From the IMG/VR virus record IMGVR_UViG_3300043639_000021, positions 1 through 61,916 of that record: a DNA stretch of 61,916 nt. The stretch is one strand, 5' to 3'. The translations under genes were made by a program, and so were the position numbers. How positions within the stretch are numbered: the first letter of the stretch is position 1; the number at the start of each line of letters is the position of its first letter. The notes beneath the pieces were generated by a model. It made no database searches and was not told the origin of the DNA. It was given only the letters and a program-made list of their open reading frames with translations. Below are positions 1,976 to 34,917 of this stretch, piece after piece. This DNA comes from a virus. Lineage: Duplodnaviria; Caudoviricetes.

Positions 1976-1980
1976 GAACG

Positions 1981-5717: not shown

Positions 5718-5726
5718 CGTCAGCCC

Positions 5727-6305
5727 TTAGCTGAAGGACGACCGGCGGGTGGGATCCTTTGAGCCAAACATCTCACGGGCGTGCCGCCGCCGCTGCTCGT
5801 TGCTGAACTGAAACCCCGGCCCTGCGGGGTTCTCGAAAGGCAAATTCGTGGCCTTTGCTGGTGGACTCCCGGCCTTATAAGGCAACTTCTCCACTCGGGA
5901 CTCGTCCATACCTCTCCTGAAGGGCAGATTCTCGTAAGAATCCACCGTTCGTGCCTTGGCCTTGCGCTCCAATTCAATGAGCGTAGTATTGGTTTCGACT
6001 TCCTTCGTGCGGGCCTTGGCCTTGCGTTCCAACTCAATGAGCGTGGGATTCGTCTCCGTCACCCCGTAGTCGAACCGGCTCAGAAACCCCTTGACCATAC
6101 CTTTGAGCTTCTGGCCAAACGCGCCCGTCGTGGGGGCTCCCATGGTGCCACCCGGACGCCCTCCACCGCTGGGAGCAAATCGGCCATCGGACCCGTGGTT
6201 GGGGTTGTACTTCAGCACCCGTTCATAAGGAAGGGTAGCAACAGGCTTCTCGTCCGGGTGTTCCAGCGCGTGGCGTGACATCACGGCTGAGGTATGAATG
6301 GGCAT
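5727..6305 (-). CDS. Tagged basic protein with internal duplication
   Basis: Likely ATG at 6305 after GGAG. Tag YERVLKYNPNHGSDGRF; two copies of ETNxTLIELERKAKART. Confidence 0.6.
   Translation of the reverse strand: MPIHTSAVMSRHALEHPDEKPVATLPYERVLKYNPNHGSDGRFAPSGGGRPGGTMGAPTTGAFGQKLKGMVKGFLSRFDYGVTETNPTLIELERKAKARTKEVETNTTLIELERKAKARTVDSYENLPFRRGMDESRVEKLPYKAGSPPAKATNLPFENPAGPGFQFSNEQRRRHAREMFGSKDPTRRSSFS
5945..6060. repeat. Imperfect 60-bp tandem duplication within a CDS
   Basis: gccttggccttgcg[c/t]tccaa[t/c]tcaatgagcgt occurs twice, 60 bp apart. Confidence 0.8.
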
Positions 6306-6368
6306 GAGGCTCCTGCACTTGATTGCAACCGGTGTGCGTAGTGTACAGGAGGGGGGAGGATGCAACAA

Positions 6369-6530
6369 CTATTTTCTGGGCACCCACAGGGTGGGGACCA
6401 GTAGCTCCTTGGCCCGCTCCGGATGCACGTTCATCGTGGTCACCAGATGCCGGTAGGCTCGTGGTTTCGCCACTGGTTTCGCCATCAACGGTGCAAGGGA
6501 CCGAGTGATCGGCTTGGTCGTAATCGTCAT
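6369..6530 (-). CDS. Small basic hypothetical protein (53 aa)
   Basis: Manual translation MTITTKPITRSLAPLMAKPVAKPRAYRHLV...; start overlaps the upstream stop (ATGA). Below the ORF track cutoff. Confidence 0.45.
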   Translation of the reverse strand: MTITTKPITRSLAPLMAKPVAKPRAYRHLVTTMNVHPERAKELLVPTLWVPRK

Positions 6531-9310
6531 ACCAGATACCCCTTGGCCTGTGCCACCAGTAGATCATCCGTCAAGTCCAGCCCCCACGTGCCCACCGCAT
6601 CCCCGAAGAGCCATTCCCCGATGGTCACCCCCTCGTAGGTGAAAGGAAGCTCCACAAGGGCCGACAGGGCGTCCACCGACCGGTCTTGGAGCAGATGTTC
6701 CACCAACAGACGGTCCCCCGGCTGAAGGGACGCCAGCATCGGCTCGGCAATGGTCAGCGCATGGGTGCGGAGGCTGTCCCACTCCAATTCATCGGGGAGA
6801 AATCCCAGACGGGCGTAGTAGGCCGCATTGCCTGCGACTCCTACGGCGACTTCCGTCGCGGTGGACTTGAGCCCCATGTCAATCAGGGCGCTGAACATCT
6901 GCTTCATGAACGCCAGTTCCCCTTTGGGGTTCCCGGCCTCCAGATCCGCACGGGTCAGGTAGTAGGTGCCGGTGAAGGGGTCCAACAGGGCTCCCAGCTT
7001 GAACTCGATGCCCTGCGGGCTCGATCCTCGGACGTTGAACCCGATGTTGCCAGATTCCTCAAAGCGGATCGGATTAGCCCCAACGCCTTGGCCCTTGGTC
7101 ATCACCTCCTGTGGGGGAAGCCCGGAGAACTTCGACAGCAACTCCACGGGCGTCATGCCGACGTGCTCGTTCCACTGGTCCACCTGTTCGGGGGTGGCGT
7201 CGATGCCCAGTTCCTTCAGATCATCAGCCGTCACCGCATGGAAGGCTTCGGCCTCAGCGGGAACGGTAGGCGTCACCTCCGTGCTCTCCCCAGCGGAGAA
7301 TTGAATCGCTCGGAGGATGGTGCGGCAGTGTGGATGGTACGGGGGGATGTGGAGCCCACGCTCCGTCAATTCCTCGGCACTCATCTGGGCAAACTCTGCC
7401 AGCGCGGCCTTCGTCTGCTTGGGCCATGGCTGCACCACCCGTAGGTCGTTCGGATCCTGTACTTCCAAGACCTCGATGACCTTCCGGCGGGCATCTGGGA
7501 CGTTGAACACCTTGCCGTTGATCAGGCGACAGAATCGACTCGTGCGCCCGTCAAGGATGGCGGTGAGGCGATACCGGGCCATGCCCAGCACTTCGGCCTC
7601 GGCAGTGAACCCCCACGTCGCCAGTCGGCTGCTGTTCAGGCTGGCGATCATCCGGAGGGATTCATCCCCCTGCTTGTCGAAAGACACGAACGGAGTGACA
7701 TATCGCCCGGATACCGGATCTTTCTTCTGCACCGCCGTCCCGAGATGCACAATCTCCTGCCGGTGGTCCTTGTGGCTAATGATGATAGCCGACACCACGA
7801 AAGAACCATCCACGTACAGGTCCGCATACGGTTCGGCCTTCTCCGGTTTACAGTACGCCAAGGTACAGTGGGGTTTGTAAACCGGGAACGACTTCTCCTT
7901 GAAGTCTGCGTGCTTGCCGATCTCTTTCTCGATCTGGCGTAGCTCGGGACTGGCAATCAGGGCCACGACGGGCACGGCTCCGTCACTGTGCTCACTGGCT
8001 GGGAATAGCTCCACCCGGAGGACACGGGCTTCGAAGGGTGCAAGGGTGGAGAGGTAGGCCCGCAGGCCATCGAGATCGTCGTTCTCCAAGCCGTAGCGGA
8101 CGGTCACATGATTAGGGTCTACGTCCTTGCCATCAGCCATGCAGTCCGCATCGGCTATGGTGGCACGGGCAGCATTCAGGGAGGCGGCGGCGGAACTGGC
8201 TGGGTCAATCTGAATCTGGGTGTTGCCGTACGAGTGCTCGGACTTCTGCGCGTGCTTCTCCTTGAACTTCCGGATGGCTGGTCCGTAGTCCGGAGTATCC
8301 AGCAACGCATCGTGCTCACCGGCTAGAATCTCCGCCTGTAATTGGGCATTCGACGCTTTGGCGATATACCGATACTTCTCATGCCACGGACGGGAGGTAG
8401 TGACGAACCGGCTCGGAGGGATCTCCTGCACATTGGACATGTAATCATGATCGCCACGGTTGAACTCCGCAATCCGTGCAAGAGCGTCTGGGCTGGTCTT
8501 GTCCTCCCGGCTGAACAACGGCCCTCGCCCGGAGATTTCATCTGGATCGAGAAAGACCTCGACATAATCCTTGAAATCGTGCGGCTTCGCCGTGGAGAAC
8601 CAGATAGCGTTCGGCTCTCCGTACCCGGCCCCCTTGGCTTTGGTGATAGACAACCCCTCCTTCTCGACGGCATCCATGTCCCCGGTGTAGTGGTAGCCGC
8701 GAATCTTGCCCGGTGGAATGGGGGTGGTACCGGGTTCAGCGGGTACATCAGAGAACTGACCGTGCGTGTCACGGGGATGCTGGCTCTCATCCCACGCCAG
8801 TTTCACCGCTGCGAGATAGCCGTGCTTCTTGGCATTCTTGACGGATTCTGGATCCATCGACACGGGGATCGACGTGAGCCCCTGATCCCGCAACCACGCA
8901 TACCGGTGTCGCCCGTTGGTGAACCCAACCTTGCCGTCCTCATTCACCGTGACTTCAGACGCCTCCATGGAGTCGTTCTCAGCAATGAATTCTCCGAAGG
9001 CAGGGTAGCGGTCATGGATGGCATTGGGACCACCCCCTACACCAAGATAGAACCCGGTTTCCCGCTGGAAGGCGGTATCAAACGCGACGACATTGAGGGG
9101 GACGAGCTTATCCCCGGCGCGAACGGCTCTCAGTGGCTTGACCACCTCAATTCGCCGCTCACCGACCGTGATGAAAGCTTTCTCAAGGAATCGGCCTTTG
9201 GCATCCCGTCGATGCTCCGACTCCTCCCACGCCAGCTTATGCTCGACACGTATCCGCGTGACTCGCTTGATCCAATCCGAATTCTCGGGGCGCTCGTCAA
9301 GATTGATCAC
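6527..9310 (-). CDS. Polyprotein: ParB-like + ART-like + 2H phosphoesterase (Acb1-like) + MuF C-terminal domain + C-terminal extension
   Basis: Tags KLAWEESEHRRDAKGRF and KLAWDESQHPRDTHGQF. FTNGRHRYAWL (ParB-like); GYHYT...AIWFST (ART-like); HVTV...HCTL (2H); LDGRTSRFCRLING...PPYHPHCRT (MuF/SPP1 gp7); YYARLGF (possibly GNAT-like). Confidence 0.8.
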   Translation of the reverse strand: MINLDERPENSDWIKRVTRIRVEHKLAWEESEHRRDAKGRFLEKAFITVGERRIEVVKPLRAVRAGDKLVPLNVVAFDTAFQRETGFYLGVGGGPNAIHDRYPAFGEFIAENDSMEASEVTVNEDGKVGFTNGRHRYAWLRDQGLTSIPVSMDPESVKNAKKHGYLAAVKLAWDESQHPRDTHGQFSDVPAEPGTTPIPPGKIRGYHYTGDMDAVEKEGLSITKAKGAGYGEPNAIWFSTAKPHDFKDYVEVFLDPDEISGRGPLFSREDKTSPDALARIAEFNRGDHDYMSNVQEIPPSRFVTTSRPWHEKYRYIAKASNAQLQAEILAGEHDALLDTPDYGPAIRKFKEKHAQKSEHSYGNTQIQIDPASSAAASLNAARATIADADCMADGKDVDPNHVTVRYGLENDDLDGLRAYLSTLAPFEARVLRVELFPASEHSDGAVPVVALIASPELRQIEKEIGKHADFKEKSFPVYKPHCTLAYCKPEKAEPYADLYVDGSFVVSAIIISHKDHRQEIVHLGTAVQKKDPVSGRYVTPFVSFDKQGDESLRMIASLNSSRLATWGFTAEAEVLGMARYRLTAILDGRTSRFCRLINGKVFNVPDARRKVIEVLEVQDPNDLRVVQPWPKQTKAALAEFAQMSAEELTERGLHIPPYHPHCRTILRAIQFSAGESTEVTPTVPAEAEAFHAVTADDLKELGIDATPEQVDQWNEHVGMTPVELLSKFSGLPPQEVMTKGQGVGANPIRFEESGNIGFNVRGSSPQGIEFKLGALLDPFTGTYYLTRADLEAGNPKGELAFMKQMFSALIDMGLKSTATEVAVGVAGNAAYYARLGFLPDELEWDSLRTHALTIAEPMLASLQPGDRLLVEHLLQDRSVDALSALVELPFTYEGVTIGEWLFGDAVGTWGLDLTDDLLVAQAKGYLV

Positions 9311-10278
9311 GCCAGTAGCTCCTGAATCTTCCGCTTCGCGGTATGCTCACGGCTGGCGTCAAACACCCACGCCTGCCGGGGCTTCCCCAGCATGATTAGT
9401 TCCCGCTCGTGCAGCGCCCCTCGCCCGGTCAGTGCCGTACTCAGGATCTCCGACACCGGCACACGGGTAGTAATCACAGACGGCTCGGGGGTGTCATATG
9501 TATCTTCGCCGGGGATCTGGTCAAACGACTGATTGGACGTGAATTGAAACGCCACGTCCTCATCCGATGTCCACGACGACGCAGGCTGCATCGTCACCGT
9601 GCCCACCCCTAAGCCTAGCTCCCCACGGCCCTGTAGCCCGCCGTGTCCACGCAGCACGGACACGTGCGTAATCCCTTGCTTCGCGAACCACGCTTGCGTA
9701 TTTTCATACTCGGCTCGGACAAACGCCATTGCTCGTGATCGCTCGGGCTCTTTAAGCGTGGGATGGAATCTCAGGTGATCCGTAGCGGCATCCAACCCAA
9801 ATTCCAATCGAACCGCCTCCTGCATCTTGACGGCATCCACACTGTTCGCCGCCGTATCCGCCCACAGATCAATCTTCTCTTGAATCCACCCGGCTATCTT
9901 CGGCCCCGTCATACCAGCAAAGGCCGGGTGTTTCAACAGGCGCTCCGTCAACTCCATTTGAACCCGACGTTTCACGACGCCCCGTACCTCAGATGCCCGC
10001 AACGGATCGAACCCCGGAAAGCTGTCTCGTATGGCTCCCTCCACCTGTTTAGGAGCCACCAGCCGCGTGTGATCCTGAAACGCCCGCTGCATTTGATCGA
10101 CTTCAGCCTGCCGGGGATGGTAGGACGACACCCAGCGCCCCCCACCAGAAGTGCCCTCAGGATTCCGTGGCTGATTGGGATCGAACTTCTGTACTGGCCC
10201 GTAGAGGGGGACCAGAAATTCCCGGTCGTCAATGAGCAGTTCAGGAGTCATGGGGTTCAAAGGTATAGGTGAAGCCAC
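9307..10278 (-). CDS. Tagged ADP-ribosyltransferase (R-S-E type)
   Basis: Tag KFDPNQPRNPEGTSGGGRW; VLRG...SSWTS...ERELIML catalytic pattern. Confidence 0.72.
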   Translation of the reverse strand: MASPIPLNPMTPELLIDDREFLVPLYGPVQKFDPNQPRNPEGTSGGGRWVSSYHPRQAEVDQMQRAFQDHTRLVAPKQVEGAIRDSFPGFDPLRASEVRGVVKRRVQMELTERLLKHPAFAGMTGPKIAGWIQEKIDLWADTAANSVDAVKMQEAVRLEFGLDAATDHLRFHPTLKEPERSRAMAFVRAEYENTQAWFAKQGITHVSVLRGHGGLQGRGELGLGVGTVTMQPASSWTSDEDVAFQFTSNQSFDQIPGEDTYDTPEPSVITTRVPVSEILSTALTGRGALHERELIMLGKPRQAWVFDASREHTAKRKIQELLA

Positions 10279-10864
10279 CGAGTTGCCTCTGCAACCGGGA
10301 GTACAGCAACTTGTGGTGCATCGCGTTCGCTTCGGCTATCGAAATGTCAGAGTGAACAATTCGCTGCTCCAAGTCGGCTTTCACCGCTTCGTGCATCGCC
10401 CGCACGGCTTGATAGAAATTCGGGGGCCACGTCGCACCCGTGCGTCGAATGCTGTGCGTACCGGTAGCAATCACCGCCCGCACTTCCAACACATTCCGTT
10501 TCGCGGCGGTAAACGCATCCTGCTGACTCGGACCCATCCCTGAGGGATGATTGTGCGTCAACACCGCCCCCGTAAGATCGGCATCCGTGGCGTTCCCCAA
10601 CTGCACCGCATGAGGATCGTCATTCCCCAGCACCTTGAAGGGCTTGCCATCCCGAATCAGGAAGACATGCTCATTCATCTCGTGACGAATGCGATGCTCC
10701 GCTGCCGCCAGCGTAGGTGGCAGGGGCTCCGCCCGCATCTCCGCTGCCGTCGTCTGTCCTCCCACCCCAGCCCAGCGCCCATCGTCATCACGGGGCTGGT
10801 TCGGGTTGAACTTCAGCACCGGAATTGCACTTGATTGCACGGGGCGTAGCTGGAGGTAGAGCAT
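10241..10864 (-). CDS. Tagged JAB/MPN metallopeptidase-like protein
   Basis: Tag LKFNPNQPRDDDGRW; E...LTHNHPSGMGPSQQD JAMM-like motif. Confidence 0.72.
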   Translation of the reverse strand: MLYLQLRPVQSSAIPVLKFNPNQPRDDDGRWAGVGGQTTAAEMRAEPLPPTLAAAEHRIRHEMNEHVFLIRDGKPFKVLGNDDPHAVQLGNATDADLTGAVLTHNHPSGMGPSQQDAFTAAKRNVLEVRAVIATGTHSIRRTGATWPPNFYQAVRAMHEAVKADLEQRIVHSDISIAEANAMHHKLLYSRLQRQLGGFTYTFEPHDS

Positions 10865-10866
10865 GG

Positions 10867-11097
10867 TCAGTCGGAGATGAACTTCGCCCGGTAGTAGGAA
10901 CCGGAGAACTCGATTTCCAACGACTTCAAGAACTCCGCGTCATCGGTCTTGCGCCCGCGTTGCATCTCGATATCTCGTAGAATCGGCGGCGGTACCGGTT
11001 CGTTGGTCTGAATCTGCACCCCCCCGTTCTCGGCCCGGATGGTACACATCACCCGTGCCCCCTGATTCCCCGTCATGGCCCACAATTCCACGTGCAT
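10867..11097 (-). CDS. Small untagged protein, candidate immunity partner of the upstream kinase
   Basis: GGAGGT RBS before ATG 11097; own consensus promoter; directly downstream of the kinase gene; no tag. Function inferred from context only. Confidence 0.55.
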   Translation of the reverse strand: MHVELWAMTGNQGARVMCTIRAENGGVQIQTNEPVPPPILRDIEMQRGRKTDDAEFLKSLEIEFSGSYYRAKFISD

Positions 11098-11114
11098 CAC
11101 ACACCTCCAGTCAC

Positions 11115-11143
11115 AGTGTATCACTAGGATGACAGTTTGTCAA
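11115..11143 (-). promoter_or_regulatory. Sigma70-type promoter inside the head operon
   Basis: TTGACA-17 bp-TACACT on the minus strand, just after the kinase stop codon. Confidence 0.75.
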
Positions 11144-12871
11144 TCACCATGACATGAGTTGCTGATCGTTCCACAGATCGACCAGTCCTTCGGGGGTTTG
11201 CAGGGCGGTTTTGATGTTGTCCACCCGCCCCAAGAAAGCGGCACGTTCCTTGGCGTTCATGTTCGGGTGGCGATCCACCAGTGCCTGCCAATCGGTCTTC
11301 GATACCGCCCCCTGAAGCGTCTGACGTAAATCTTCGGAGATTTCCGAGTTGTTGCTTTTCCACTCTCCGACCACGCCGGATCGAAACTGAAACGAATCCG
11401 GCTCCCGAGACGCGGGCATGCTGTAGCCGTTGTCGATGGCCACGAGCTTCCCATTCTCGTAGAGGATGTTCTGGCTGTGTCGATCCATCGTGCCGATCAC
11501 GTAGTCCAGCACCGCCAGCTTGGCCTTCTCGTCATCGCTCGTAGTTCCCCAGCTTTCCGCGTTTCCACGGAACTGCTGAATGGATCCCCCCTCGGGGTGT
11601 GGGGCGTCTGCATTCCCCTCTCCACCCCTTCCGCCGCTCCCAAATCCTTGGCTCCGCCGCCAATCCGTGAAGGACGGGAACTGCTCGTCCATCAACCGGT
11701 TCTCGGTGTCGGAGTGGTCCTGTATCCACTCATCGCGATCCAGATGCTCAAACGCCTCTGTGCGGGTGGGATCTTCCAGTTCTCGGTAGCCTTCCTCCAG
11801 CCGCTTCCGGAGCAGTTCTCGGACGCGATCTTCCTCATACGTCCGCAACGACCGGCCTGCGTCGATACCCGCCCCGTCGATGACCTCTAGCAAGGGGAGC
11901 GGCCCGACGTCTCGGCGCTCAAACCCCTCAGCCGATCCCAGCGGCAAGGCCGCATGTTCACGCAGCGCAGACGGAGAACCATGGGTGTGGTCACTGGGAT
12001 AGGCTTTCTTCTCGTCCTCCCAGATTTCACGAATTTCCTCGGCCCGGTTCTCAATGTCATCGGCGTGTTCCTTCTGCGCTTCTTCGAACTTCTCGTTCAT
12101 CGCCTCCGCGACGTTCTCGTAGGCTTGATCCTGCCCGCGTTCCTTGTAGCTCTCGTAGCGGCTCCGTAATTCATCGGAGTCGTAGCCCCCGCCGCCTTCA
12201 CCACCCACTTCACTGAGATCCACATCATCCACTCGTTCTCGGAGCACCGTGGCAGGCACCAACCCGAGATTCAGTGCAGAATCGACCTCGTAGGCGAAGG
12301 CTTCCCGTTCTGCGAGAGAAAAGTCTTTGTTCTTGAGGAACCGATTGATGTCCCCATTGGTAAAGCTCATATCCCATGCTTCACCCACCTCGGGTTTGTA
12401 AAAGCCCTTGGTGCCATCTTCGAACGTCACTTTAAAGGCGGCATTTGAACCGCCTCCATAGTTATCACTGTCCGTGATCTCCCCGTTCGCCAGCGTCTCC
12501 AGCACCTCCGCTTGCGCGGCAGACGCCTTGGCATGCGCCTCTGCGGCCTCTGTGGCCTTCGCCTGCGCCACGAGAGCTTGTACTCCGGTGGTTCCTCGGG
12601 GATTGTTTTCAAACCCTGTCCCACTGGGGCCATTCATGATGTCCGCATACCCGGCGTTCCCCTGTTGACGGGACATACCCTTGGGAGTCGAGAAGTCTCC
12701 CGGCATGCTCCCCGTCCCGGCGCTCACTCCCTTGACCCACCGTCCACCAGTCGGTGTGCCTTTCTGGCCACGAGGCTGATTGCGATCCCACTTCAGTACA
12801 TCCGGAAACGTGGGCTCCATCTTGAGGATGCGCCGAATCTCTGCAATCAAGTGCCGGGTGACGGTGATCAT
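11144..12871 (-). CDS. Tagged PI3/4-kinase-like (HipA-related) kinase with large acidic insertion
   Basis: Tag LKWDRNQPRGQKGTPTGGRW; GFYKP, EREAFAYEVDSALNLGLVPATV, GSIQQF, LDYVIGTMDRHSQN and IDNG kinase motifs. Confidence 0.8.
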   Translation of the reverse strand: MITVTRHLIAEIRRILKMEPTFPDVLKWDRNQPRGQKGTPTGGRWVKGVSAGTGSMPGDFSTPKGMSRQQGNAGYADIMNGPSGTGFENNPRGTTGVQALVAQAKATEAAEAHAKASAAQAEVLETLANGEITDSDNYGGGSNAAFKVTFEDGTKGFYKPEVGEAWDMSFTNGDINRFLKNKDFSLAEREAFAYEVDSALNLGLVPATVLRERVDDVDLSEVGGEGGGGYDSDELRSRYESYKERGQDQAYENVAEAMNEKFEEAQKEHADDIENRAEEIREIWEDEKKAYPSDHTHGSPSALREHAALPLGSAEGFERRDVGPLPLLEVIDGAGIDAGRSLRTYEEDRVRELLRKRLEEGYRELEDPTRTEAFEHLDRDEWIQDHSDTENRLMDEQFPSFTDWRRSQGFGSGGRGGEGNADAPHPEGGSIQQFRGNAESWGTTSDDEKAKLAVLDYVIGTMDRHSQNILYENGKLVAIDNGYSMPASREPDSFQFRSGVVGEWKSNNSEISEDLRQTLQGAVSKTDWQALVDRHPNMNAKERAAFLGRVDNIKTALQTPEGLVDLWNDQQLMSW

Positions 12872-12873
12872 CC

Positions 12874-15039
12874 TTAGCTCACTTTCGACCAGTCTACGGT
12901 GCTCATCCAGTGGGGCTTGCCACGGTCCTCGGCTTGGAGATCGATCACCAGCGTCTGGGACTCGGCCTTCTTCACCGGTTGTACGATGGGCACCTCATCG
13001 AAGGATGGGGCTCGGTTGCGCCACGCATCCCACAACCACTTGTCTTTGGTACCCACAATGACCACCTCGTGCTCGGAAGTATTATTCGCCCCGTAGATCG
13101 GCAGTGAAAGCACCGACGTAGGAGGCGTCTCGATGCGAAGGACGACTCGGATGGGATCCGGAGGCAGATTGCCGACACCACCCCACTCGTTCGCCACATC
13201 ACGAGTGCCGGTCGTAGACGCGGCTCCAGACCGTTGCAGTTGAATATCAGGCAGTTTGATAGACAAACCCACAGAAGTATTCAAATACATCGCGATTCGC
13301 CGCTGAATCGCCACCTCATTACTCTCGTAGGGAGTCTGACCGACGTCCGTGATAGTGGTGGCCTCGACGCGCTTCTTCGGAACCACAAAATGCTGGCCGT
13401 TGAAATCAAAGGCCACATGAGGGAACGGAGAATACGTACTCGTCACCTCTTTAATATTCGTGGCTGCGGGTTCGGGTTGTCCCGTTTTATCCACGATCAA
13501 ATTCGTCGTGCCCCTCACCACGTCACCGGGCATCTGCAACCCCCGATACACGGGAACTGTCGTCTCCCCGGCCCGCTGTAACACCAGTTGGTTCACTTCC
13601 CACTGGGCACGGACGTAGGCTTGCAACGTGGCGATACCGCCATAATCCTCGGCATCCGCCGTCGCGTCCTCTACCTCTTCCTTCGTCAGCCGATGGTGAC
13701 CTCCCAGTTCCAGTGCCGCCGCCAACTGCAACGACAGAGACAACCCTTCACTAGACGAAGCAATCCACTGTCCCCAAACATCGCTAATCAATTTCTGCGA
13801 CGTGGTCGGAAGAGATGCTTGTTTTTGCCAGTACGTCGCCCACTTTTCTCCGAATTCCTTAGCCAGTTCTTCTGTCTCCGCCCCGCCTACCACACTCCCC
13901 GTATCATCCTTCACCACGAACTTGCCAGCTTTAACCAGCAACGGATGATTCGCTTCAACCGTATACGCAGGTCGTTCGACAGCATGTTCCCCCGCAAACC
14001 CCCGCTCTTTCCGCAACTCATCCGTCCGTAGTTCGGTCAGACGCTTGGCAATCGTCGCTGTGCGGGCGTAGTCATCATCCTCGTGGGTGCCTTCTTTGAT
14101 GCCTGATACCCAGTGTGTCGGCTCATGACGGCCTGCGGTCCCATAGGGATTGTCCACCCCGGAGAATTCTCCGCCTGCGATCATCTCGGGAATGACGGCG
14201 GCTCGTTGCTCGGGGGACATCCGATCCCACTGCTTCTGAACTTCCGCCGTGACCAACTCCCCCCGCTCCTCCAAATACTTGTCGGTGTTCTGAACCCGCT
14301 CGATTTCATCGTCCAGCACCCGCTTGTATTCGTGGGACCACCACCCACTCACATGGGTTTTTTCGAGGGGTGTCAACTCCGTGCCATCCGTGTGTCGCAG
14401 TGCATTGGTATCCAACACCGGCACCCCGGTATCGTCCACGCGCTTCGGGTCAGGCACGCTTAACGTCTTGAAGTCCAGTGGTTTGCCCTGCGACACGCTC
14501 TTATCGAGCGCATACCCGTCCATGGGCTTGTCACCGATTCGACCTTCTACCCAGACCTTGGTCTTCTCGGCCAGTTCGGGAGCGTGGTTCTCGATCAAAT
14601 CCCACCGGACATCCACCACCATGTCAGCGTCGATGGCCTGCACGTCCACGTTGTCGTACTGAGACTCTGCGTAGTAGGCGGCAACCTTTTGCTTGGTGCT
14701 CTCAGGAAGATCCCCCCACTCCCCTTTCACCTCCGACATATCCATCGTGTCGATGGCTTCCGGTAGGAGCCTCTCGACGGCAGCGATCCCGGCCTTGGCT
14801 TGCACCGCTAACAGAGGATCGGACGTAGGGACGCCTGAACGACCGGACTCCGTGAACCGCCCGCCCTCTCGCGTGCCTTCGGGGTTGCGGGGGTGCTCAG
14901 ACTCGTCAAAGGCGTCCTTGGCCTGCTTCGGTGGGGGATGACGTTTCTCCAGCAACACCCGGATCTTGTGGACAAGCTCCTGCCCACGGATTAAGGCGTC
15001 CTCTCGGAGTATTGTTTTCTCGATGGTGTCGTGGCTCAT
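12874..15039 (-). CDS. Tagged large protein with C-terminal R-S-E ADP-ribosyltransferase domain
   Basis: Tag KDAFDESEHPRNPEGTREGGRF; VYRG...STT...EHEVVIVG. Similar to 9307..10278 (YVRAQWEVNQ vs FVRAEYENTQ). Confidence 0.68.
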   Translation of the reverse strand: MSHDTIEKTILREDALIRGQELVHKIRVLLEKRHPPPKQAKDAFDESEHPRNPEGTREGGRFTESGRSGVPTSDPLLAVQAKAGIAAVERLLPEAIDTMDMSEVKGEWGDLPESTKQKVAAYYAESQYDNVDVQAIDADMVVDVRWDLIENHAPELAEKTKVWVEGRIGDKPMDGYALDKSVSQGKPLDFKTLSVPDPKRVDDTGVPVLDTNALRHTDGTELTPLEKTHVSGWWSHEYKRVLDDEIERVQNTDKYLEERGELVTAEVQKQWDRMSPEQRAAVIPEMIAGGEFSGVDNPYGTAGRHEPTHWVSGIKEGTHEDDDYARTATIAKRLTELRTDELRKERGFAGEHAVERPAYTVEANHPLLVKAGKFVVKDDTGSVVGGAETEELAKEFGEKWATYWQKQASLPTTSQKLISDVWGQWIASSSEGLSLSLQLAAALELGGHHRLTKEEVEDATADAEDYGGIATLQAYVRAQWEVNQLVLQRAGETTVPVYRGLQMPGDVVRGTTNLIVDKTGQPEPAATNIKEVTSTYSPFPHVAFDFNGQHFVVPKKRVEATTITDVGQTPYESNEVAIQRRIAMYLNTSVGLSIKLPDIQLQRSGAASTTGTRDVANEWGGVGNLPPDPIRVVLRIETPPTSVLSLPIYGANNTSEHEVVIVGTKDKWLWDAWRNRAPSFDEVPIVQPVKKAESQTLVIDLQAEDRGKPHWMSTVDWSKVS

Positions 15040-17177
15040 AGGATAGACACACCTTCATGGGACTCTTTGAACCGGTCGAGAGCGTCTTCATCCCACATGC
15101 CCGATGACTGGATGGCCTTCAACTGATCGTAGAGGAATTGCCGCTTCTCAGGACCGTAGTTTTCGTCAATATACAGCACCCTGTCCCGCATTCCCCTACG
15201 TGCCAGTTTATCAGATAATCGCTGTGCGGCCTCGTAATCTCCTTCGACCACGAACCCTTTGACCGCTGACTTGGGCACCTGTGGCACTTTTACTTCGAAT
15301 AGTTGCTCACGGGACCGGTGCAACAGAGCTTCAGGGGATCCCGCTCGTGCCGCCGCCACGGCATAGTAGTCATCCCCCTTCACGATCATCGACCGGTACT
15401 TCTCTACCCGCCGGGGGTTGTACGTCTCCCGCATACCGGTATCATCAAACTCGGCCCCTCCCGGCACCACAACAATATCCTTCTCCGTGGCCCATCCCCC
15501 GTCCTGAAGAACTTCGTTGTCGATGATGACCGCCACGTTGCCGTAGTCTTGATGCTTCTCCCCATGGGTCATGAACACAAACCGATCCAACCCCAGCTTC
15601 TTATCAGCAGGATTGGTGGTCCCTGTGATCACCTTTTCAATGTCTTGCAATTCCTGCACGTAGCCTAAGAGCGCCTCCGCGTCACTGCGATCCAATCCCA
15701 GTCCCTCAATATCATCAGCAGTCCAGAAGGGAATGTTGCCCCAGTCCGCATCTTCACCCACGATGTTATTGATGCTGTCCTTCAGATCCTCAATGTCCTC
15801 AGTCAAATCTTTGATTTCGCCTTCCATATCTGCGTGCGAAAGCAAACCCTTCTCCACGGCTCCAAGTGCTCCGGCCACGGTCGTTCCGTGAACCAAAGGC
15901 AGGGCACGTAACTCTTGTTCTGCTGCATGCTCCTTGGCTAGATCCGGCTCTGTTCCGGACAAGAACGTCCGCACCCGCCGAAACTCAGTAATCTGCGCTT
16001 CGGCATTGGCTTTCGAATCCACGCCCTGCAAAACCTTTGCTGACGATGCAAATTGCCCGCCTTCACTAGTGCCTTTCGGCTCTCGGACGTACTCTCGTGC
16101 CACCTTCTTGCGCTTCCGGGGCACATCGGCATAGACCCGCACTTCGTGCAGGAACTTGTCGGAGCCCGTCGTCACGAGCGCATCAGCGGGAATGTCCTCA
16201 GCGGCGGTTTCCAGAATCTGCACGTGTTCGGGATTCAACTTGGCAAGGAGCTTCTGGTCCCCAAACAGGATGGGGTTCTTCAGACTCTCCACGGGATGGC
16301 CTGCGGCCTGCTCCGCTTCTCGCTCTCGCAACTGGAGATAGGCTTTGTGGGCATCCGACACGTGACTGCGGTAAATCTGTTCCCGCTCCTCCGGAGGTGG
16401 GGGTGGACCCACCCACCCACGCTTGTCCTCGGGGAGATCCTTGTCCCACACGAACGTGCGCTCCAGCGATTGATCACTCCAGTTGTGCAGGGCGAAATCC
16501 ACCGCCCCTTGGAGCGATCCCTCTGGTAACCCAGCCGCCTGCTCGTCCTCCCGTGCCCACCGCTCAATCGTGTCCTTCCGGGCTTCGCCTCGGGCTATCT
16601 GTATGGCCCGGACCAACTCTCGCTGAATGACCGTGGCATCCACAGGGCTGGACGTGAACGACACCCCTAGTGCCTGCCCACCACCCAGCCCACCGCTCTC
16701 CTTCAAGCCCAGTAGGACGCCAGAGGACTCCACCGCCGGAGCATTGGTGGTGACGTGGTAGAGCGTCGATGGAATCTGCTCACGGGGGATGGGCTCACCG
16801 GTCAGCAGATGCCCTCCGGGCTTGCCCGTCTCCTTGTCGATCCACGCCCACCGCTGTTCGTTCCCCCAACTGGAATACTGACCTACATCAGAGGGACGGT
16901 TGAAGATGCGGGGCTGGCTGGCCTCGATGAACCGGCCATCATCGCCTCGTGGGTGTGCTGCCGCATCGAACTTCCGGGTGATGCCCCCGATACCGGGAGC
17001 TTTTGCACTTGAGTGCGCGGTAAAGAAGGCGGTGCTGCCGTCGTCAAAGAGCACACGGGCAGCGGTGGCCTTCTCAGCGGGCACAGGGTGCCAGTGGGCA
17101 TCCAGATACACCACGGTGCCGGTCTTGCTGCCGATGGTGATCAGAGTAGGGGTCACGCTCGATACCACTTGTGCCAC
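15036..17177 (-). CDS. Tagged polyprotein: small N-terminal domain + two His-type ART-like domains
   Basis: Tags KFDAAAHPRGDDGRF and REYVREPKGTSEGGQF. Domain 1 LYHVT...GVSFTS...HEVRVY; domain 2 LVHGTT...GLLSH...FVFMT...FEVKV (DarT-like pattern). Confidence 0.62.
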   Translation of the reverse strand: MAQVVSSVTPTLITIGSKTGTVVYLDAHWHPVPAEKATAARVLFDDGSTAFFTAHSSAKAPGIGGITRKFDAAAHPRGDDGRFIEASQPRIFNRPSDVGQYSSWGNEQRWAWIDKETGKPGGHLLTGEPIPREQIPSTLYHVTTNAPAVESSGVLLGLKESGGLGGGQALGVSFTSSPVDATVIQRELVRAIQIARGEARKDTIERWAREDEQAAGLPEGSLQGAVDFALHNWSDQSLERTFVWDKDLPEDKRGWVGPPPPPEEREQIYRSHVSDAHKAYLQLREREAEQAAGHPVESLKNPILFGDQKLLAKLNPEHVQILETAAEDIPADALVTTGSDKFLHEVRVYADVPRKRKKVAREYVREPKGTSEGGQFASSAKVLQGVDSKANAEAQITEFRRVRTFLSGTEPDLAKEHAAEQELRALPLVHGTTVAGALGAVEKGLLSHADMEGEIKDLTEDIEDLKDSINNIVGEDADWGNIPFWTADDIEGLGLDRSDAEALLGYVQELQDIEKVITGTTNPADKKLGLDRFVFMTHGEKHQDYGNVAVIIDNEVLQDGGWATEKDIVVVPGGAEFDDTGMRETYNPRRVEKYRSMIVKGDDYYAVAAARAGSPEALLHRSREQLFEVKVPQVPKSAVKGFVVEGDYEAAQRLSDKLARRGMRDRVLYIDENYGPEKRQFLYDQLKAIQSSGMWDEDALDRFKESHEGVSIL

Positions 17178-18820
17178 TCGTACATCATTTCAGTCAGCAT
17201 CACCCACTGAGAGTCCGGATCCGGCTTTTCTTTCTCATCCCACGACTGAGGAGTAGTCATAAACCGGGTGATCTCCGCTATCGTCTCAGTGATGGCATGA
17301 TCGTACGGGTGCCAGCGGCTATCCTTCTTCTGTTCGGCAATGGCCTCCGGAGTCCAATAGGACTCCGCGTACGTGCTGTGCCCATCCTCTTGGATCATTT
17401 GCTTGGTAATACCCAGCGATCCCCTGAAGTACTCGCCGCCCGCAAGCCTCGCCACCACCGTAGAGGCTGGATAGTCTCGGGCAAACTCCTCCGCATACTC
17501 GGGTTTCAACTGTCGCCCAGTACGCCCACTCGGTCCAGTCTGCATCGAAAATCGTTCCAGAAACCACTCCGAGTACTGATCCGTGGGAGTGAACGCCTTC
17601 TTCTTATAGGCTTCTTCCTCCCGCTCGGAGGCTTGTTTCAATGCGTGGAAGATGGCGTGGGAAATCTCATGGGACACTACCCCTTGGATGTCAATCCTGT
17701 CTCCATAGGAAAGAGTAGGATCCCCGTAGGTAGACCCAATGTTTGCGGCATTCAATTGAATACGCCCCGTGGTGGGATCAAAATGCCCAGCTTCCGTAAA
17801 CTGCTTCGCGCCAACCGAAAATCCCTTGGCCTCCTCATGCACTATGTCAATGCGCGACGGATCAAACCCCATTTTCTGGGCCATCTCGTTCGCCAAAACG
17901 CGAACGGCCTCCGCCCGGATCTTGGCCCGCTCCGGGCTTACGGCCTCCAGCGTGATGTCCAGCATCGCGTCCGATCCGGCTGAACTTTCCGTGAACTTCC
18001 CGGCCCTGTCACGGGGGTGCTCGGACTCGTCCCACTTCGTGACCGTCACAAACTTGGCGGGAATAGGCTCACGACTCCACACCGAATCCGGGCCGCTGTT
18101 CCGCTTGAGTCCTTCGTACAGCAATCGCGGGAGGCGCACCGTTACCACAGCGGGTTGGGCGTGCATCTCAGAATACGATTTCGCTGACGCCATCCGTTTG
18201 GCCAACCAGATATAGTCCCGGTGTCCCTCTGGATCTCCGCCCATCGTCTGCTTGGCGACGGCGCGGATTCTGAACCCTTCCTTTAGAATCTTGTTGGCCC
18301 GTCTCCGGCTGGTGCCGTGGTATAGCTCCACAAACTCCCCGACGTGGGTGACGCCTTCGGCATCCACCCATCGACCGTGCTCATCCCGTGGTTGGGCAGG
18401 ATCGAACTTCAGCGCCTTGGTATTGGCCTCATCCGTGGCAATCAAGTGCAGGGCATCTTCTTGGATCTTGGCGGTGGCGGTGAACTCCAAGTACTGGATG
18501 ATGTTGTTGGTGACTTGCTTCAGGAAGGTGTCGAAGGTGCCGACGCCGACGAAGCTGGGCTTCTTCTTGGCTACTGTTTGGGCACCGAAGGTGGCGAACG
18601 ACAGCAGCATGTAGGTGATCCACTCCCTGTTGCTCGTACCGACCTCGGTCATGTCAAGGAAGGTCACCAGACGGCGGGCTTCATCCCACTTGTGGTCAAG
18701 ACACGCTTGGGTGATGCGGGCGTACAGGGGGGCAGACTGGATGCGCCACGCCCGTTGCAGGCGACGGACAAACGCCCGCTCTAGCAGGAGATACGTGCGA
18801 AGGTCAACGGTCTTGGCCAC
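17153..18820 (-). CDS. Polyprotein: helical N-terminal region (putative MuF N-half) + ART-like domain + zincin metallopeptidase
   Basis: Tags LKFDPAQPRDEHGRW and KWDESEHPRDRAGKF; LYHGTS...ILKEGF...YIWLA; HEISH...ETIAE zincin motif. Confidence 0.7.
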   Translation of the reverse strand: MAKTVDLRTYLLLERAFVRRLQRAWRIQSAPLYARITQACLDHKWDEARRLVTFLDMTEVGTSNREWITYMLLSFATFGAQTVAKKKPSFVGVGTFDTFLKQVTNNIIQYLEFTATAKIQEDALHLIATDEANTKALKFDPAQPRDEHGRWVDAEGVTHVGEFVELYHGTSRRRANKILKEGFRIRAVAKQTMGGDPEGHRDYIWLAKRMASAKSYSEMHAQPAVVTVRLPRLLYEGLKRNSGPDSVWSREPIPAKFVTVTKWDESEHPRDRAGKFTESSAGSDAMLDITLEAVSPERAKIRAEAVRVLANEMAQKMGFDPSRIDIVHEEAKGFSVGAKQFTEAGHFDPTTGRIQLNAANIGSTYGDPTLSYGDRIDIQGVVSHEISHAIFHALKQASEREEEAYKKKAFTPTDQYSEWFLERFSMQTGPSGRTGRQLKPEYAEEFARDYPASTVVARLAGGEYFRGSLGITKQMIQEDGHSTYAESYWTPEAIAEQKKDSRWHPYDHAITETIAEITRFMTTPQSWDEKEKPDPDSQWVMLTEMMYEWHKWYRA

Positions 18821-19064
18821 TCTGTTTCCCGGCCTCCTCCACGATTTGCGTCACAGCTTCCTTCTTGACCGCTTTCGCGTCCCGCTCCCCACGTTCCTTG
18901 GCGTGAGCCGTCATCCAATTGTTAATGTCGGTGCTGAAATTCGACCACCACGACAAGAACACCAGATAGCGCACCGACTCCTGCCACGAGGTGAGCGTGG
19001 GATAGAGCAACAACACCCACACCACCACCGTCAGCGAATAGAAGTACGAGAGTTTGAACCTCAC
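18804..19064 (-). CDS. Small membrane protein
   Basis: Two hydrophobic N-terminal segments and a charged C-terminal tail; overlaps both neighbours. Confidence 0.55.
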   Translation of the reverse strand: MRFKLSYFYSLTVVVWVLLLYPTLTSWQESVRYLVFLSWWSNFSTDINNWMTAHAKERGERDAKAVKKEAVTQIVEEAGKQSGQDR

Positions 19065-19471
19065 TCCTGTTCCCGTGCGGCTCGGAAGGCTTTCTGCTTC
19101 GCTCGGCCTTGGGCCATGCGATAGTCCAGATCCCGCTGCTTCTCCGCCACGATGCCCCCACGGTCCAGCCGTGCCTCGCGCATCCTCCCGGCCTTGGCCT
19201 TGTGCTCCTTGTTCTTCTCGACCACCCGTGCCCGTGCCGCTACATAACGATCCAGTTGCGTGACCGCATAATCACGAAACTGCGCCGGATCCACCCCTGC
19301 ACGCTCCGCGTGAATCGCGGCTTCCGCCACCACATGCTGGCGGGCCTTCAACGGCGTGTGTCCCGCCTCCAACCCCTCAATCACCCCGGCGTCGAACACC
19401 TCGGTGAATCGGCCATTCGGTCCTCGGGGATGCGCGGCCTCATCGAACTTCAGGATGTCGGCATACGTCAT
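19061..19471 (-). CDS. Tagged small basic helical protein
   Basis: Starts MTYADILKFDEAAHPRGPNGRF; coupled to the portal stop. Confidence 0.65.
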   Translation of the reverse strand: MTYADILKFDEAAHPRGPNGRFTEVFDAGVIEGLEAGHTPLKARQHVVAEAAIHAERAGVDPAQFRDYAVTQLDRYVAARARVVEKNKEHKAKAGRMREARLDRGGIVAEKQRDLDYRMAQGRAKQKAFRAAREQE

Positions 19472-21345
19472 CGCAGCACCCCCACCACCGCTGACAGGTC
19501 CGCATCATCAGAGCCGTAGACCAGCATCGCCAGCAAGCTGTTGAACGCTCGGGCATCATCGGGATCCAACGTCTCAATCTCGGCGTTGATCTCGGTGGCC
19601 CGCTCGGGTGTCAACTCCTGCTTGATGGCCAGTTGTGGCAGGAGCCCTTGGTAGACGGCGTAATCCTGCACCAGTGACAGGAGATCGCCTGCGGCCTTCC
19701 GGTACTTGGCCTTGGCCTTCTCCCGTGCCATCGCCTTGGCTTCTTCCTTCGCGCCGATCTCATCTGGGGTTTCGACCTTCGGCTCGGGCTGTTTCTGCGG
19801 AGCCGTCATCGGGGGATGCACCGTGGACGCCGGAAGCTCACCAGACGGGATCTCGTCCATCGTAGGCGTGTTCGGCAGCGGCGTCTCGCCGGGGGCAACG
19901 TTGGGAGCCGGAGCTTCCGACATCTCCAGATTCATCTGGCCCAGCGTGTTCATCTCTTGGAGGAAGCTCTCACGGGTGGCGACAGGCATCGCCAGTTCCA
20001 ACCCCTTCAACTGCGTGGCCACATCCTTCAGGGTGATGGGCTTGGACTTGTAGATGAGGGTCTTGAGCTTCATCTCTTTGAGAATGGTCTTGTTGATCAT
20101 CTCATCGAATTCGGTGCGCTCGGGCAGGAACACCTGTGCCTCGGCCACCATATAGCTCGTTTGTGCGGTGGCGAAGTTGTAGTCAGCGGCGTAGCCAAGG
20201 AAGAGGGGCGGCAGACGGAAGCCGATCCGGACGTGCTCCTTCGTCTGCTCATCGTAGTTGGTGAACATGGCGTCTTGACTCTGAGCAGAGCCGAAGCGTT
20301 CCACCTTCACGTCCACCTTACCCGCCGCATCCAGTGACCCGCTGGAGGACTGCACTTCTACGACCACCGCCCGGTTCTTGTTCTTGTTCAGACCGCTTAG
20401 GTACATCCGCAACTGGTCGGACGTGTCCTTGATCAGCGTGCCTCCCTGAATGAACACGATGGCGGGCGGGAGGCCACCGGCATCGAGGAATTGCAGGTTC
20501 TGTTCTTCCGCCGCACGGGAACCGATCACCGATGGCAACTGGTTGATCCACCGGGGCAGGTAATAGGGCGTCGTAATATCAGGGTTGATGCCCAGCATCA
20601 GCAACTCGGAGCCGCGCTTCTCCGCCGGAACTTTCTCGGTGTCCGTCTCCCACTTCCCCGTCTCCCGATGAATCTCACGGGTGGTCCCAAACTCCCGGTA
20701 GTAGACTTGGGTTTTCAGGCCCACCGACTGCGCGAACCGTCGCTCCCGATCCCACAGGACCAGTTCGACTTCTTTGCCGTTCCGGGTGATCTTCTTCTTG
20801 ACCTGAATGGGGGCATCGAGCTTCACCAGCCGGATGTGGGAGGTTTCCACACTTCGAAGTCCGACGATATCGCCTCCGATATTCCGGAGCACCTCCATAA
20901 AGCCGTAGCCCACGGACTCCATCTGCCGCCGCAGCTTGCGACGAATGCCGGTCATCGACGTATTGGGGTAGGGCTCATCAAAGAACCCGGTGGCGATCTT
21001 CTCTTCCTCCTTGTCGATATCCTTGCCTTCCTCAACGGGCACCAACTCGTAGCCCGTGCCGTCGATGTTGACTTCCATCGCCTCGATGCACTGGTTCAGG
21101 ACGTTGTTGGTTTGGACAAGGTTCAGGAGGACGTTCGGTTCGAAGGGCGGCATCAGGTAGAGGTTATCCTGCTGCCCCGCCGTGTAATAGAGGTTGGCAA
21201 ACTCGTCCTCTAGTTCGACGGTCGTCTGCGCCATCACCAGCCACGTCTCGTTCTTGATCACCTTCTGGATGAAGTGGATCTTGGACTCGGGACTCTTGAC
21301 TGGCTTTGAGGGAACGACTCCCTCTGTGAGCTTCAGCATTGCCAA
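19468..21345 (-). CDS. Portal protein (PBSX XkdE-like)
   Basis: CIEAMEVNIDGTGY, GYGFMEVLRN, YYLPRW, FLDAGGLPPAIVFIQGG and FRLPPLFLGYAADYNFATA are portal-typical segments; first gene of the head operon. Confidence 0.9.
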   Translation of the reverse strand: MAMLKLTEGVVPSKPVKSPESKIHFIQKVIKNETWLVMAQTTVELEDEFANLYYTAGQQDNLYLMPPFEPNVLLNLVQTNNVLNQCIEAMEVNIDGTGYELVPVEEGKDIDKEEEKIATGFFDEPYPNTSMTGIRRKLRRQMESVGYGFMEVLRNIGGDIVGLRSVETSHIRLVKLDAPIQVKKKITRNGKEVELVLWDRERRFAQSVGLKTQVYYREFGTTREIHRETGKWETDTEKVPAEKRGSELLMLGINPDITTPYYLPRWINQLPSVIGSRAAEEQNLQFLDAGGLPPAIVFIQGGTLIKDTSDQLRMYLSGLNKNKNRAVVVEVQSSSGSLDAAGKVDVKVERFGSAQSQDAMFTNYDEQTKEHVRIGFRLPPLFLGYAADYNFATAQTSYMVAEAQVFLPERTEFDEMINKTILKEMKLKTLIYKSKPITLKDVATQLKGLELAMPVATRESFLQEMNTLGQMNLEMSEAPAPNVAPGETPLPNTPTMDEIPSGELPASTVHPPMTAPQKQPEPKVETPDEIGAKEEAKAMAREKAKAKYRKAAGDLLSLVQDYAVYQGLLPQLAIKQELTPERATEINAEIETLDPDDARAFNSLLAMLVYGSDDADLSAVVGVLR

Positions 21346-34879: not shown

Positions 34880-34917
34880 ATGTGCTTCCCACTCCATTGG
34901 TCAGACTTGACTTCATC

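Follow-up and report, generated by a model that had tools for sequence, protein, structure and literature searches.

The whole IMG/VR virus record IMGVR_UViG_3300043639_000021 (61,916 bp, completeness rating 54%; hereafter the window), a member of the Caudoviricetes, appears to encode its MuF-type minor head protein in two separate genes. Sequence comparisons support the view that residues 1-138 of the open reading frame (ORF) 17153-18820 and residues ~526-927 of ORF 6527-9310 are the halves of one such protein, and enzyme-like genes marked by a short peptide tag lie between them. Taken as a whole, it is highly probable that the arrangement is best explained by a split MuF gene, a cargo array loaded at the hinge of the protein, halves that re-associate, and an exchange of cassettes based on the tag. 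By these comparisons, the clade of the window inherited a MuF-type minor head protein of ~530 residues, composed of a helical N-terminal module (N-module), a flexible hinge, the MuF core, and a C-terminal domain. In this clade, the insert at the hinge has grown into a multi-gene array and the gene has been broken into an N-half gene and a core-half gene.

The two MuF-type pieces and their relatives

The sole MuF signature of the record lies deep in ORF 6527-9310, as an earlier note on this DNA had reported: PF04233 gave one match, at residues 552-665 (E 8.7e-4, 20.5 bits with the whole ORF, below the Pfam cut-off), and the motifs D-x-R-T-x-x-C and P-P-x-H-x-x-C-R are both present. Cargo precedes the core in this ORF (two tags, a PFIN-like stretch, an unassigned domain, and a 2H phosphoesterase), and no helical N-terminal part was found there. 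The best PHROG match of the core was the unnamed phrog_30193 (E 1.6e-21, profile positions 160-279 of 360), and families of minor head or head morphogenesis proteins were also matched (phrog_9907, E 5e-10; phrog_241, E 1.9e-8; phrog_115, E 2.1e-7). Since the matched core part begins 160-260 positions from the start of the MuF-type PHROG profiles, relatives normally have a sizeable N-terminal part. The candidate for this part is the helical N-module encoded by the second gene after the portal gene, with the core ~11.7 kb downstream. The earlier note had described it as an untagged segment ending in ALK and followed by a tag, which was borne out, except that the conserved lysine is residue 138 (nucleotides (nt) 18409-18407) and the proposed cut of 137 residues stops at L137. 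The tag KFDPAQPRDEHGRW follows directly, and the ALK and AVQK codons are 10,671 nt apart.

The 137-residue N-piece was searched against 1.84 billion cluster representatives (E up to 0.001). This gave 133 homologous representatives, 31 of them at E up to 1e-30, and the match always began within the first 19 residues. When residues 520-690 of the core ORF were searched against these 133 homologues, the core was found in 98 (E 1e-20 to 1e-72). The two pieces abut in 62 of the 133, with a projected gap of -14 to +23 residues (mostly -11 to +6), and another 36 carry an in-frame insert at the same junction, either small (19 proteins, projected gap 49-205 residues) or larger (17 proteins, up to ~1,480 residues). 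Other domains and no core in the same protein were found in 31, and the remaining four are short sequences with the N-module only. The two pieces thus do occur in one polypeptide, abutting or interrupted, in agreement with the proposal of the earlier note that they derive from one ancestral MuF.

The pieces also fit together in the alignment. Against 18 contiguous relatives, the N-piece of the window covers residues 1 to ~130, and the core piece takes over at V-Q-K and runs to their end, with the C-terminal domain included, so that the halves meet at V-x-K / R-[FY]-V. Identity to 56 contiguous relatives was 22-54% for the N-module and 23-42% for the core and C-terminal domain. Both halves are homologous over their whole length to contiguous members of the subfamily (~530 amino acids). 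The window has all 10 columns of the core and C-terminal domain that are invariant among 57 aligned family members, and the 250 residues that follow the core form a C-terminal domain conserved throughout the family, as opposed to a variable toxin. In two of the five contiguous relatives scanned (P0027 and P0056), phrog_30193 aligned as one stretch over both parts.

Among cultured phages, the Stenotrophomonas phages Summit, DLP_5, and DLP_3 are the closest by portal (47-49% identity). They encode N-module and core in one frame (e.g., QZI85658.1) directly after the portal gene, with ~31% identity in the N-module, 55-56% in the core, the hinge VVKKAATKKRFV, and a gene for an XkdF-type protease following, as in the window. 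In contrast to the window, their gene is contiguous, no array or tags were found there, and the C-terminal domain is ParB-like and not GNAT-like. In Summit (L001, MZ326862.1), the open frame spans nt 1855-3195, whereas the annotated coding sequence, named "ParB-like nuclease domain protein", begins at nt 1993; the annotated start is probably too far downstream and omits the first 46 residues of the N-module. A further 18 loci were found in bacterial genomes, mostly distant MuF genes of Firmicutes and a few in metagenome-assembled genomes, and no host for the clade of the window was found among them.

Close relatives of the N-module, at 76-97% identity, were found on ten viral contigs, of which the five with enough flanking sequence were searched for the core. 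Each gave exactly one core match, downstream and on the same strand, at a distance of ~13.0 kb (G001), 10.8 kb (G002 and G003), or 5.6 kb (G004 and G005). The comparison of related phages at this site, as the earlier note had advised, therefore found the gene split in all five, with gaps of 5.6-13 kb and cassettes that are partly shared. Against the split relatives L018, L019, and L020, the ratio of non-synonymous to synonymous substitution rates (dN/dS) was 0.09, 0.18, and 0.14 for the N-module, and 0.07, 0.21, and 0.12 for the core with the C-terminal domain. These low values indicate that both halves are kept by purifying selection and are therefore functional.

The hinge, the cassette array, and the tags

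In the 56 contiguous relatives, N-module and core are joined by a hinge with the pattern V (35 sequences), x, K (54), A (42), E/D (47), one to three variable residues, R (43), F/Y (42), and V/L (51). An AlphaFold2 model of the contiguous relative P0027, made with the alignment of 56 sequences, reached a mean predicted local distance difference test (pLDDT) of 91.6 and a predicted template modelling score (pTM) of 0.75. Its sole segment below pLDDT 50, residues 132-144, coincides exactly with the junction, where the helices of the N-module end and those of the core begin. In the window, a hinge remnant stands directly before the core, and KKDPVSGRY at this place is identical in L018, L019, and L020. 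Comparison of the P0027 model with the PDB by Foldseek gave no match at E up to 0.001; for the C-terminal domain, the best were GNAT acetyltransferases (E ~0.1), which is a lead only, and the family profile gave a chance match only (E 0.56) when compared with the PDB by sequence.

Among the 36 interrupted single-chain forms, the matches at E up to 0.001 were to Acb1 (17 proteins, best E 1.6e-41), general 2H (6), ART-PolyVal (5), an ADP-ribosyltransferase exoenzyme family (2), and topoisomerase IB (2; PF01028 E 9.7e-21, PF21338 E 3.5e-13). By eye, many inserts follow a hydrophobic-x-K motif at the end of the N-module, and most have a second motif of this kind at their end, ahead of A-D-x-x-G-R-[FY]-V and the core. 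A model of the interrupted form P0036 (pLDDT 88.0, pTM 0.68) placed a folded Acb1 domain (residues 144-285) right after the N-module, followed by a low-confidence linker of 46 residues with the hinge motif. The 2H domain of the window occupies the same place as the Acb1 domain of its relatives, directly before the hinge remnant. On these comparisons, the hinge tolerates insertions, with an Acb1-type 2H phosphodiesterase as the most frequent insert.

The head-gene region and all genes discussed here lie on the minus strand, in the transcription order portal gene, small tagged ORF, array (18820 to 6527), three more tagged ORFs, and XkdF-type protease gene (Table 1). From 18820 down to 6527 there are seven large, closely packed ORFs and one doubtful ORF of 85 codons (10867-11124); five clear tagged cassette genes (ORFs D to H) and the doubtful ORF lie between the N-half and core-half genes. 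The array ORFs are the longest ORFs, and the true starts may differ. Purine-rich stretches clearly precede the N-half and core-half genes, and ribosome-binding sites are ambiguous for the other array ORFs.

Several enzyme-like domains could be proposed for the cargo. The ADP-ribosyltransferase (ART)/Tpt1-like part of the N-half gene gave matches that were all below cut-offs (NF002014 E 1.3e-4, phrog_5470 E 2e-4, PARP E 0.0018), and the HExxH motif was read in the translation of this ORF, with weak matches to Astacin and SprT-like families (E 0.05-0.09). In the core-half gene, the PFIN-like stretch matched PFIN at E 2e-4. The 2H phosphoesterase (residues 396-494, nt 7829-8125) matched PF13563 above the cut-off (E 9.9e-10), and both its HxT motifs could be read; in the Pfam scan, it matched this general 2H family and not the Acb1 family PF23474. 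Pfam scans of the cassette subdomains gave sub-threshold leads only, and four array ORFs compared with the PDB by sequence had no match at E up to 0.01. The cassettes are partly shared with the split relatives and arranged differently, fused or separate depending on the relative, with extra domains in L018 and a shorter set in L020. Homologues of ORF F were found in L018, L019, and L020, those of ORFs D and E are fused into a single ORF of 1146 amino acids in L019, and the ORF boundaries E/F, G/H, and H/I recur in L018.

The tag occurs 13 times between the portal and protease genes, in the two flavours K-[FW]-[DN]-P-x-Q-P-R-x-x-x-G-R-W and W-D-E-S-x-H-P-R-x-x-x-G-x-F, and in weaker variants including KDPVSGRY. 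It is not confined to this interval, because two more tagged proteins are encoded outside the head module (ORFs 35011-35970 and 35870-36754, with the N-terminal tags VVKYNPAQPRDDQGQW and LLKFDPSEPRDAKGQW). These two ORFs are ~15 kb from the head module, beside a repetitive, tail-fibre-like ORF of 1298 residues (37552-41448). No long exact DNA repeats, which might serve as recombination substrates, were found among the tags; the tag-coding stretches are 60-92% alike over 24-59 nt.

Ends of DNA homology coincide with tags in several places. Between the window and its nearest relative L018, there are six blocks of DNA homology with 10 internal ends. Four of these ends fall within 10 nt of a tag start (18407, 18042, 7736, and 7733), against a chance expectation of ~0.2 ends, the 10-nt neighbourhoods of the tags making up ~1.75% of the sequence; two more are ~40 nt from a tag. 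The ART-like cassette (18043-18406) is swapped for 1.24 kb of unrelated sequence in L018, which also has an extra cassette of 444 nt exactly before AVQKKDPVSGRY, between nt 7733 and 7736. The DNA block of the N-module ends at 18407 in L018 and L019 and at 18401 in L020, and that of the core starts at 7733 in L018 and 7729 in L019, and in L020 reaches through the 2H domain.

Assembled contigs from four other sequencing runs (X2-X5), each counting as a single observation, were aligned to the array. Pieces from X2 and X3, which belong to other studies, were identical to the window, without a differing letter in the listed pieces. Diverged relatives from X4 and X5 (soil or sediment) depart from it at 18407 (X4) and 18042 (X5), among other places, and by eye the departing sequence at both encodes a variant tag. 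A joint of 2,384 nt in X2 (13756 to 16141) was not counted, its shorter side having only 26 letters. Among the sequencing runs listed as containing this DNA, no RNA data set was found.

Table 1. Position of the MuF-type pieces, the tagged cassettes, and the flanking head genes in the window, in order of transcription.
Feature	Position	Strand	Basis or remarks
Portal gene	19468..21345	-	TIGR01540 E 8.6e-35 (below curated cut-off); phrog_12 E 2e-24
Small tagged ORF, 136 amino acids, between portal gene and N-half	19061..19471	-	Tag FDEAAHPRGPNGRF at residue 9
Putative MuF N-half (helical N-module), residues 1-138 of ORF 17153-18820, ends ALK	18407..18820	-	Homologues, selection, DNA block end
First tag KFDPAQPRDEHGRW, directly after N-module	18368..18409	-	X4 relative contig departs from the window at 18407
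Cargo fused to N-half: ART/Tpt1-like domain, second tag at ~18040, HEISH (HExxH) domain	17153..18367	-	Weak matches
Cassette ORF D, 713 amino acids, tags at residues 70 and ~358	15036..17177	-	No family or PDB match
Cassette ORF E, 721 amino acids, tag at residue 44	12874..15039	-	Homologue in L018, 85% identity
Cassette ORF F, 575 amino acids, tag at residue 28, PI3/PI4-kinase-like	11144..12871	-	PF00454 E 1.8e-10, above cut-off
Cassette ORF G, 207 amino acids, tag at residue 18, HNHPSG motif	10241..10864	-	RadC/JAB-like lead; RadC E 0.05 only
Cassette ORF H, 323 amino acids, tag at residue 32	9307..10278	-	Tag
Core-half ORF, 927 amino acids	6527..9310	-	Core region begins ...AVQK-KDPVSGRYVTPFVSF; K529 at nt 7726
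Cargo fused to core half, residues 1-525 of ORF 6527-9310	7736..9310	-	Tag, PFIN-like, tag, domain, 2H phosphoesterase
Hinge remnant AVQKKDPVSGRY, directly before core	7700..7735	-	Aligns with V-x-K-A-[ED]...R-[FY]-V hinge of contiguous relatives
MuF-type core, residues 538-678, DGRTSRFC ... PPYHPHCRT	7277..7699	-	PHROG, PF04233, TIGR01641 matches
C-terminal domain, residues 679-927, family-conserved, weakly GNAT-like	6527..7276	-	Full-length alignment with contiguous relatives
Three further tagged ORFs 3' of core (5727-6368, 5067-5717, 2565-5066)	within 2565..6368	-	Tags
Thioredoxin-reductase-like ORF, 833 residues	2565..5066	-	PF07992 E 1.9e-33; C-terminal domain phrog_2859 E 8e-17
XkdF-type prohead serine protease, end of cargo interval	1981..2568	-	PF14550 E 6.4e-22, above cut-off

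Other genes of the window were noted in passing. ORF 19061-19471 had no family match in Pfam and PHROG-type profile scans and has a homologue in L018 (82% identity). The tagged ORF 2565-5066 stands directly before the prohead protease gene, and among candidates for capsid cargo, a redox enzyme would be out of the ordinary; its homologue in L019 aligns only over the part matching phrog_2859, a family of unnamed function. The small tagged ORF 5727-6368 contains a tandem 60-nt repeat at 5941-6056 (82% identity), so that a ...TLIELERKAKART... segment is encoded twice. ORF 21469-23040 (minus strand, 523 residues), which precedes the portal gene in a place where one could expect a terminase gene, had no family match and has a proline-rich, repetitive C-terminus (PPTEPPPTEPPP...KPPKPDKPPKP). 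Finally, ORF 32927-34897 (minus strand, 656 residues) resembles by eye the N-terminal ATP-grasp and phosphohistidine parts of phosphoenolpyruvate (PEP) synthase or pyruvate phosphate dikinase, and may on this resemblance be an auxiliary metabolic or phosphotransferase gene.

Proposed re-association of the halves and competing explanations

The complex of the window N-module with residues 520-927 of the core ORF was predicted, each partner with an alignment of the 56 contiguous relatives. The scores were 0.78, 0.79, and 0.79, with 133-137 confident contacts, and those of three controls were all 0.00; the runs agreed in at least 64% of the contacts, and the pLDDT of the partner was at least 80. 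When the tool was calibrated, 58 of 80 solved complexes and 2 of 110 mismatched pairs reached this mark, counts that apply only roughly here, given the custom alignments. The best-defined contacts are those between residues 72-80 of the N-module and 40-52 of the core, which surround the invariant glycines G79 and G48, respectively; G79 is the sole invariant residue of the N-module, and the window keeps both glycines. Co-folding, which the earlier note had proposed as a check, therefore came out in favour of a joint fold. The model chiefly shows that N-module and core would form one packed unit in the contiguous proteins, and together with the retained residues it suggests that the separate chains of the window still bind.

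Alternatively, the gene may have been split without the protein being rebuilt. The two products would then have a common origin and work separately, the N-module as a leader that docks on the portal with its own cargo, and the core protein loaded independently or acting in another role. The 31 homologues without a core in the same protein come from several parts of the tree, and thus the N-module could be self-sufficient. However, the predicted interface is large and confident (0.79 against 0.00 for the best control), it includes the two invariant glycines, both halves are under similarly low dN/dS, and all five split relatives examined keep both of them. We regard separate work of the halves as unlikely.

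The direction of the change was considered with a tree of the N-module (123 sequences, 11 partial ones left out; 131 columns, a quick method, many unresolved forks, and no root). The window fell in an all-split clade of 17 rows (support 94) inside an insert-rich group of 60 rows; the other groups were one of 52 rows, 45 of them contiguous, and a distant, mixed one of 11 rows. At least 16 switches between the contiguous and interrupted states were counted. Such an unrooted tree gives no direction, and no relation of the N-module by itself to a named MuF family could be detected, so that N-module and core could in principle have been separate ancestrally, with the 62 contiguous forms fused later and the window showing the original state. 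This is very unlikely, because each of the three major groups of the tree includes contiguous forms and the all-split clade is nested in the insert-rich one. Moreover, the phrog_30193 profile, which is more distant, runs colinearly through both parts, the PHROG profiles of MuF type have an N-terminal part as a rule, and in the interrupted single-chain forms the hydrophobic-x-K motif flanks the insert on either side, which is what insertion into an already existing hinge would produce; the contiguous state is therefore taken as ancestral.

Even less probable is an artefact or decay, in which a giant polyvalent gene would be broken by sequencing errors or be a decaying pseudogene: several array ORFs do overlap or abut (by 25, 4, 38, and 4 nt) and some predicted starts lack a clear ribosome-binding site, but the breaks between ORFs are found again in contigs that were assembled independently, runs X2 and X3 contain fragments identical to the window, both halves are under purifying selection, and the ORFs lie in different frames, each with its own tag.

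Several observations weigh against a split MuF with hinge-loaded cargo as a whole. With regard to the pieces themselves, the N-module alone, compared with Pfam and PHROG at E up to 10, matched nothing but a tail protein (E 0.1), and the excised core stayed below the curated cut-offs of both PF04233 (E 2.8e-5, 25.2 bits, cut-off 29.6) and TIGR01641 (E 1.5e-6, 28.5 bits, cut-off 39.65), although these E-values still indicate a relationship. In three of the five contiguous relatives scanned, phrog_30193 matched only from the core onwards. The complex score is a model score and not a measurement, and it may mainly reflect contacts within one chain, because the alignments were built from contiguous relatives. 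Given its few columns, quick search, and lack of a root, the tree cannot tell gain from loss. As the record is rated 54% complete, a second, intact MuF could lie elsewhere in this phage; in G005, a relative rated 100% complete, only one core match was found.

The tags add two further points of this kind. Tagged genes lie outside the MuF interval (19061-19471, 5727-6368, 5067-5717, 2565-5066, and 35011-36754), and because they flank both halves, the array fills the whole interval from portal to protease and more, not the inside of MuF alone. The claim of the earlier note that cassettes accumulated inside MuF consequently holds for the 10,671 nt between the halves and fails for the tagged genes before the N-half and after the core; "inserted inside MuF" fits part of the array only. 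The same note had seen in KDPVSGRY a likeness to the tail of the tag, and we considered the tag as an expanded hinge. A profile of 63 tags had its best match at the hinge in only three of 62 contiguous relatives, with scores near or below zero, and thus the profile test does not support kinship of tag and hinge, for which a pattern seen by eye is the argument (hydrophobic-x-K before and G-R-[FYW]-V after). The contiguous relative P0084 has VQKFDPSE at its hinge (residues 140-147), a tag-like start that may be an intermediate between a plain hinge and a tag.

If the split MuF is rebuilt from its halves, the following course can be proposed. N-module and core would re-associate without a covalent link and restore the MuF fold, and in the manner described for SPP1 gp7, the portal would bring MuF and its attached cargo into the procapsid. 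The separate cassettes would be recruited, trimmed, or both via the common tag, for which the XkdF-type prohead protease and the HExxH domain of the N-half gene are candidate cutters. The cargo would leave with the DNA and have its effect early in the host, defence signals based on nucleotides being one possible target, and phages may exchange cassettes by recombination at the tag-coding stretches. Packaging, cleavage, and injection of the cargo are steps that we infer. The broadest form of this proposal, in which the MuF hinge is a general, exchangeable loading dock, mature MuF is in effect a two-chain protein joined through the contact of N-module and core, in-frame or tagged cargo enters the head and is freed there by cleavage at the tags, and cassettes are traded at the tag-coding stretches, is put forward tentatively, and we consider it somewhat doubtful.

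Relation to known systems and meaning for phage biology

MuF is known as a carrier of effectors fused to its C-terminus. In the MuF toxins described from temperate phages, MuF is the N-terminal domain and the variable toxin follows at the C-terminus (Jamet et al. 2017, PMC5576092), and SPP1 gp7 has been described as targeted to the procapsid interior by the portal, a route that C-terminal toxin fusions are thought to exploit (PMC6316719). The window resembles the polymorphic toxins described in PMC5576092 in that MuF carries variable effector domains. It differs from them in that the variable parts are not C-terminal but stand between N-module and core, some of them encoded by genes of their own, and the C-terminal domain is conserved. 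With SPP1 gp7 and Mu gpF (PF04233), as presented in PMC6316719 and PMC5512222, it shares the motifs D-x-R-T-x-x-C and P-P-x-H-P-x-C-R in a head module beside the portal, whereas its core is below the PF04233 cut-off and its fold appears to be encoded by two genes 10.7 kb apart.

The array is also reminiscent of polyvalent proteins (Iyer, Burroughs, Anand, de Souza, Aravind 2017, PMC5512222). These strings of enzyme domains (ART, 2H, kinase, ParB-like, metallopeptidase) have been described from among the virion genes, with packaging and injection as their proposed fate. The same source mentions 2H domains fused to MuF or portal proteins and proposes that metallopeptidase domains process polyvalent proteins. 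As in these proteins, two or more effector-type domains per chain stand among virion genes in ORF 6527-9310 (PFIN-like, 2H, MuF core, GNAT-like) and in ORF 17153-18820 (ART-like, HExxH), several of these domain calls being below cut-offs.

Two phage T4 systems offer a further comparison. T4 Acb1 is a free early protein and is not known as part of a head protein, and the T4 internal proteins are otherwise unrelated proteins that are packed into the head and carry a short common capsid targeting peptide. An Acb1-type domain (PF23474) stands at the hinge in 17 of the 36 interrupted relatives, and a 2H domain stands there in the window, the latter matching PF13563 and not PF23474. The tags of the window are comparable to the T4 capsid targeting sequences in being short peptides common to otherwise unrelated proteins and, unlike them, also stand between domains inside long proteins.

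Our literature search returned no account of a split MuF gene or of cargo within the MuF fold, no phage paper pairing MuF with Acb1, and none on capsid anti-defence cargo packaged by MuF. In the main text of PMC5576092, the words "inserted" and "split" are absent. That of PMC5512222 has no "split", "fission", or "linker", and its six uses of "insert" concern other domains; the architectures in its supplement may show similar layouts. What appears to be new here is cargo inside the fold, at the flexible hinge, ranging from one domain to a multi-gene array of up to 13 kb, and a carrier gene broken in two. There is also a consequence for annotation, as the N-half gene is without a recognisable family label and the unsplit gene of the Stenotrophomonas phages is named for its ParB-like C-terminal domain.

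These results suggest that the flexible hinge of MuF is where capsid-borne proteins are naturally loaded. If the hinge is indeed such a general loading dock, the most frequent passenger, an Acb1-type nuclease, would reach the cell ready-made with the DNA, before any phage gene expression. The arrangement suggests how a phage could load changeable enzymes, including likely anti-defence nucleases, into its capsid to act at this early stage, and for the engineered delivery of proteins by phages, the hinge may be a permissive site.

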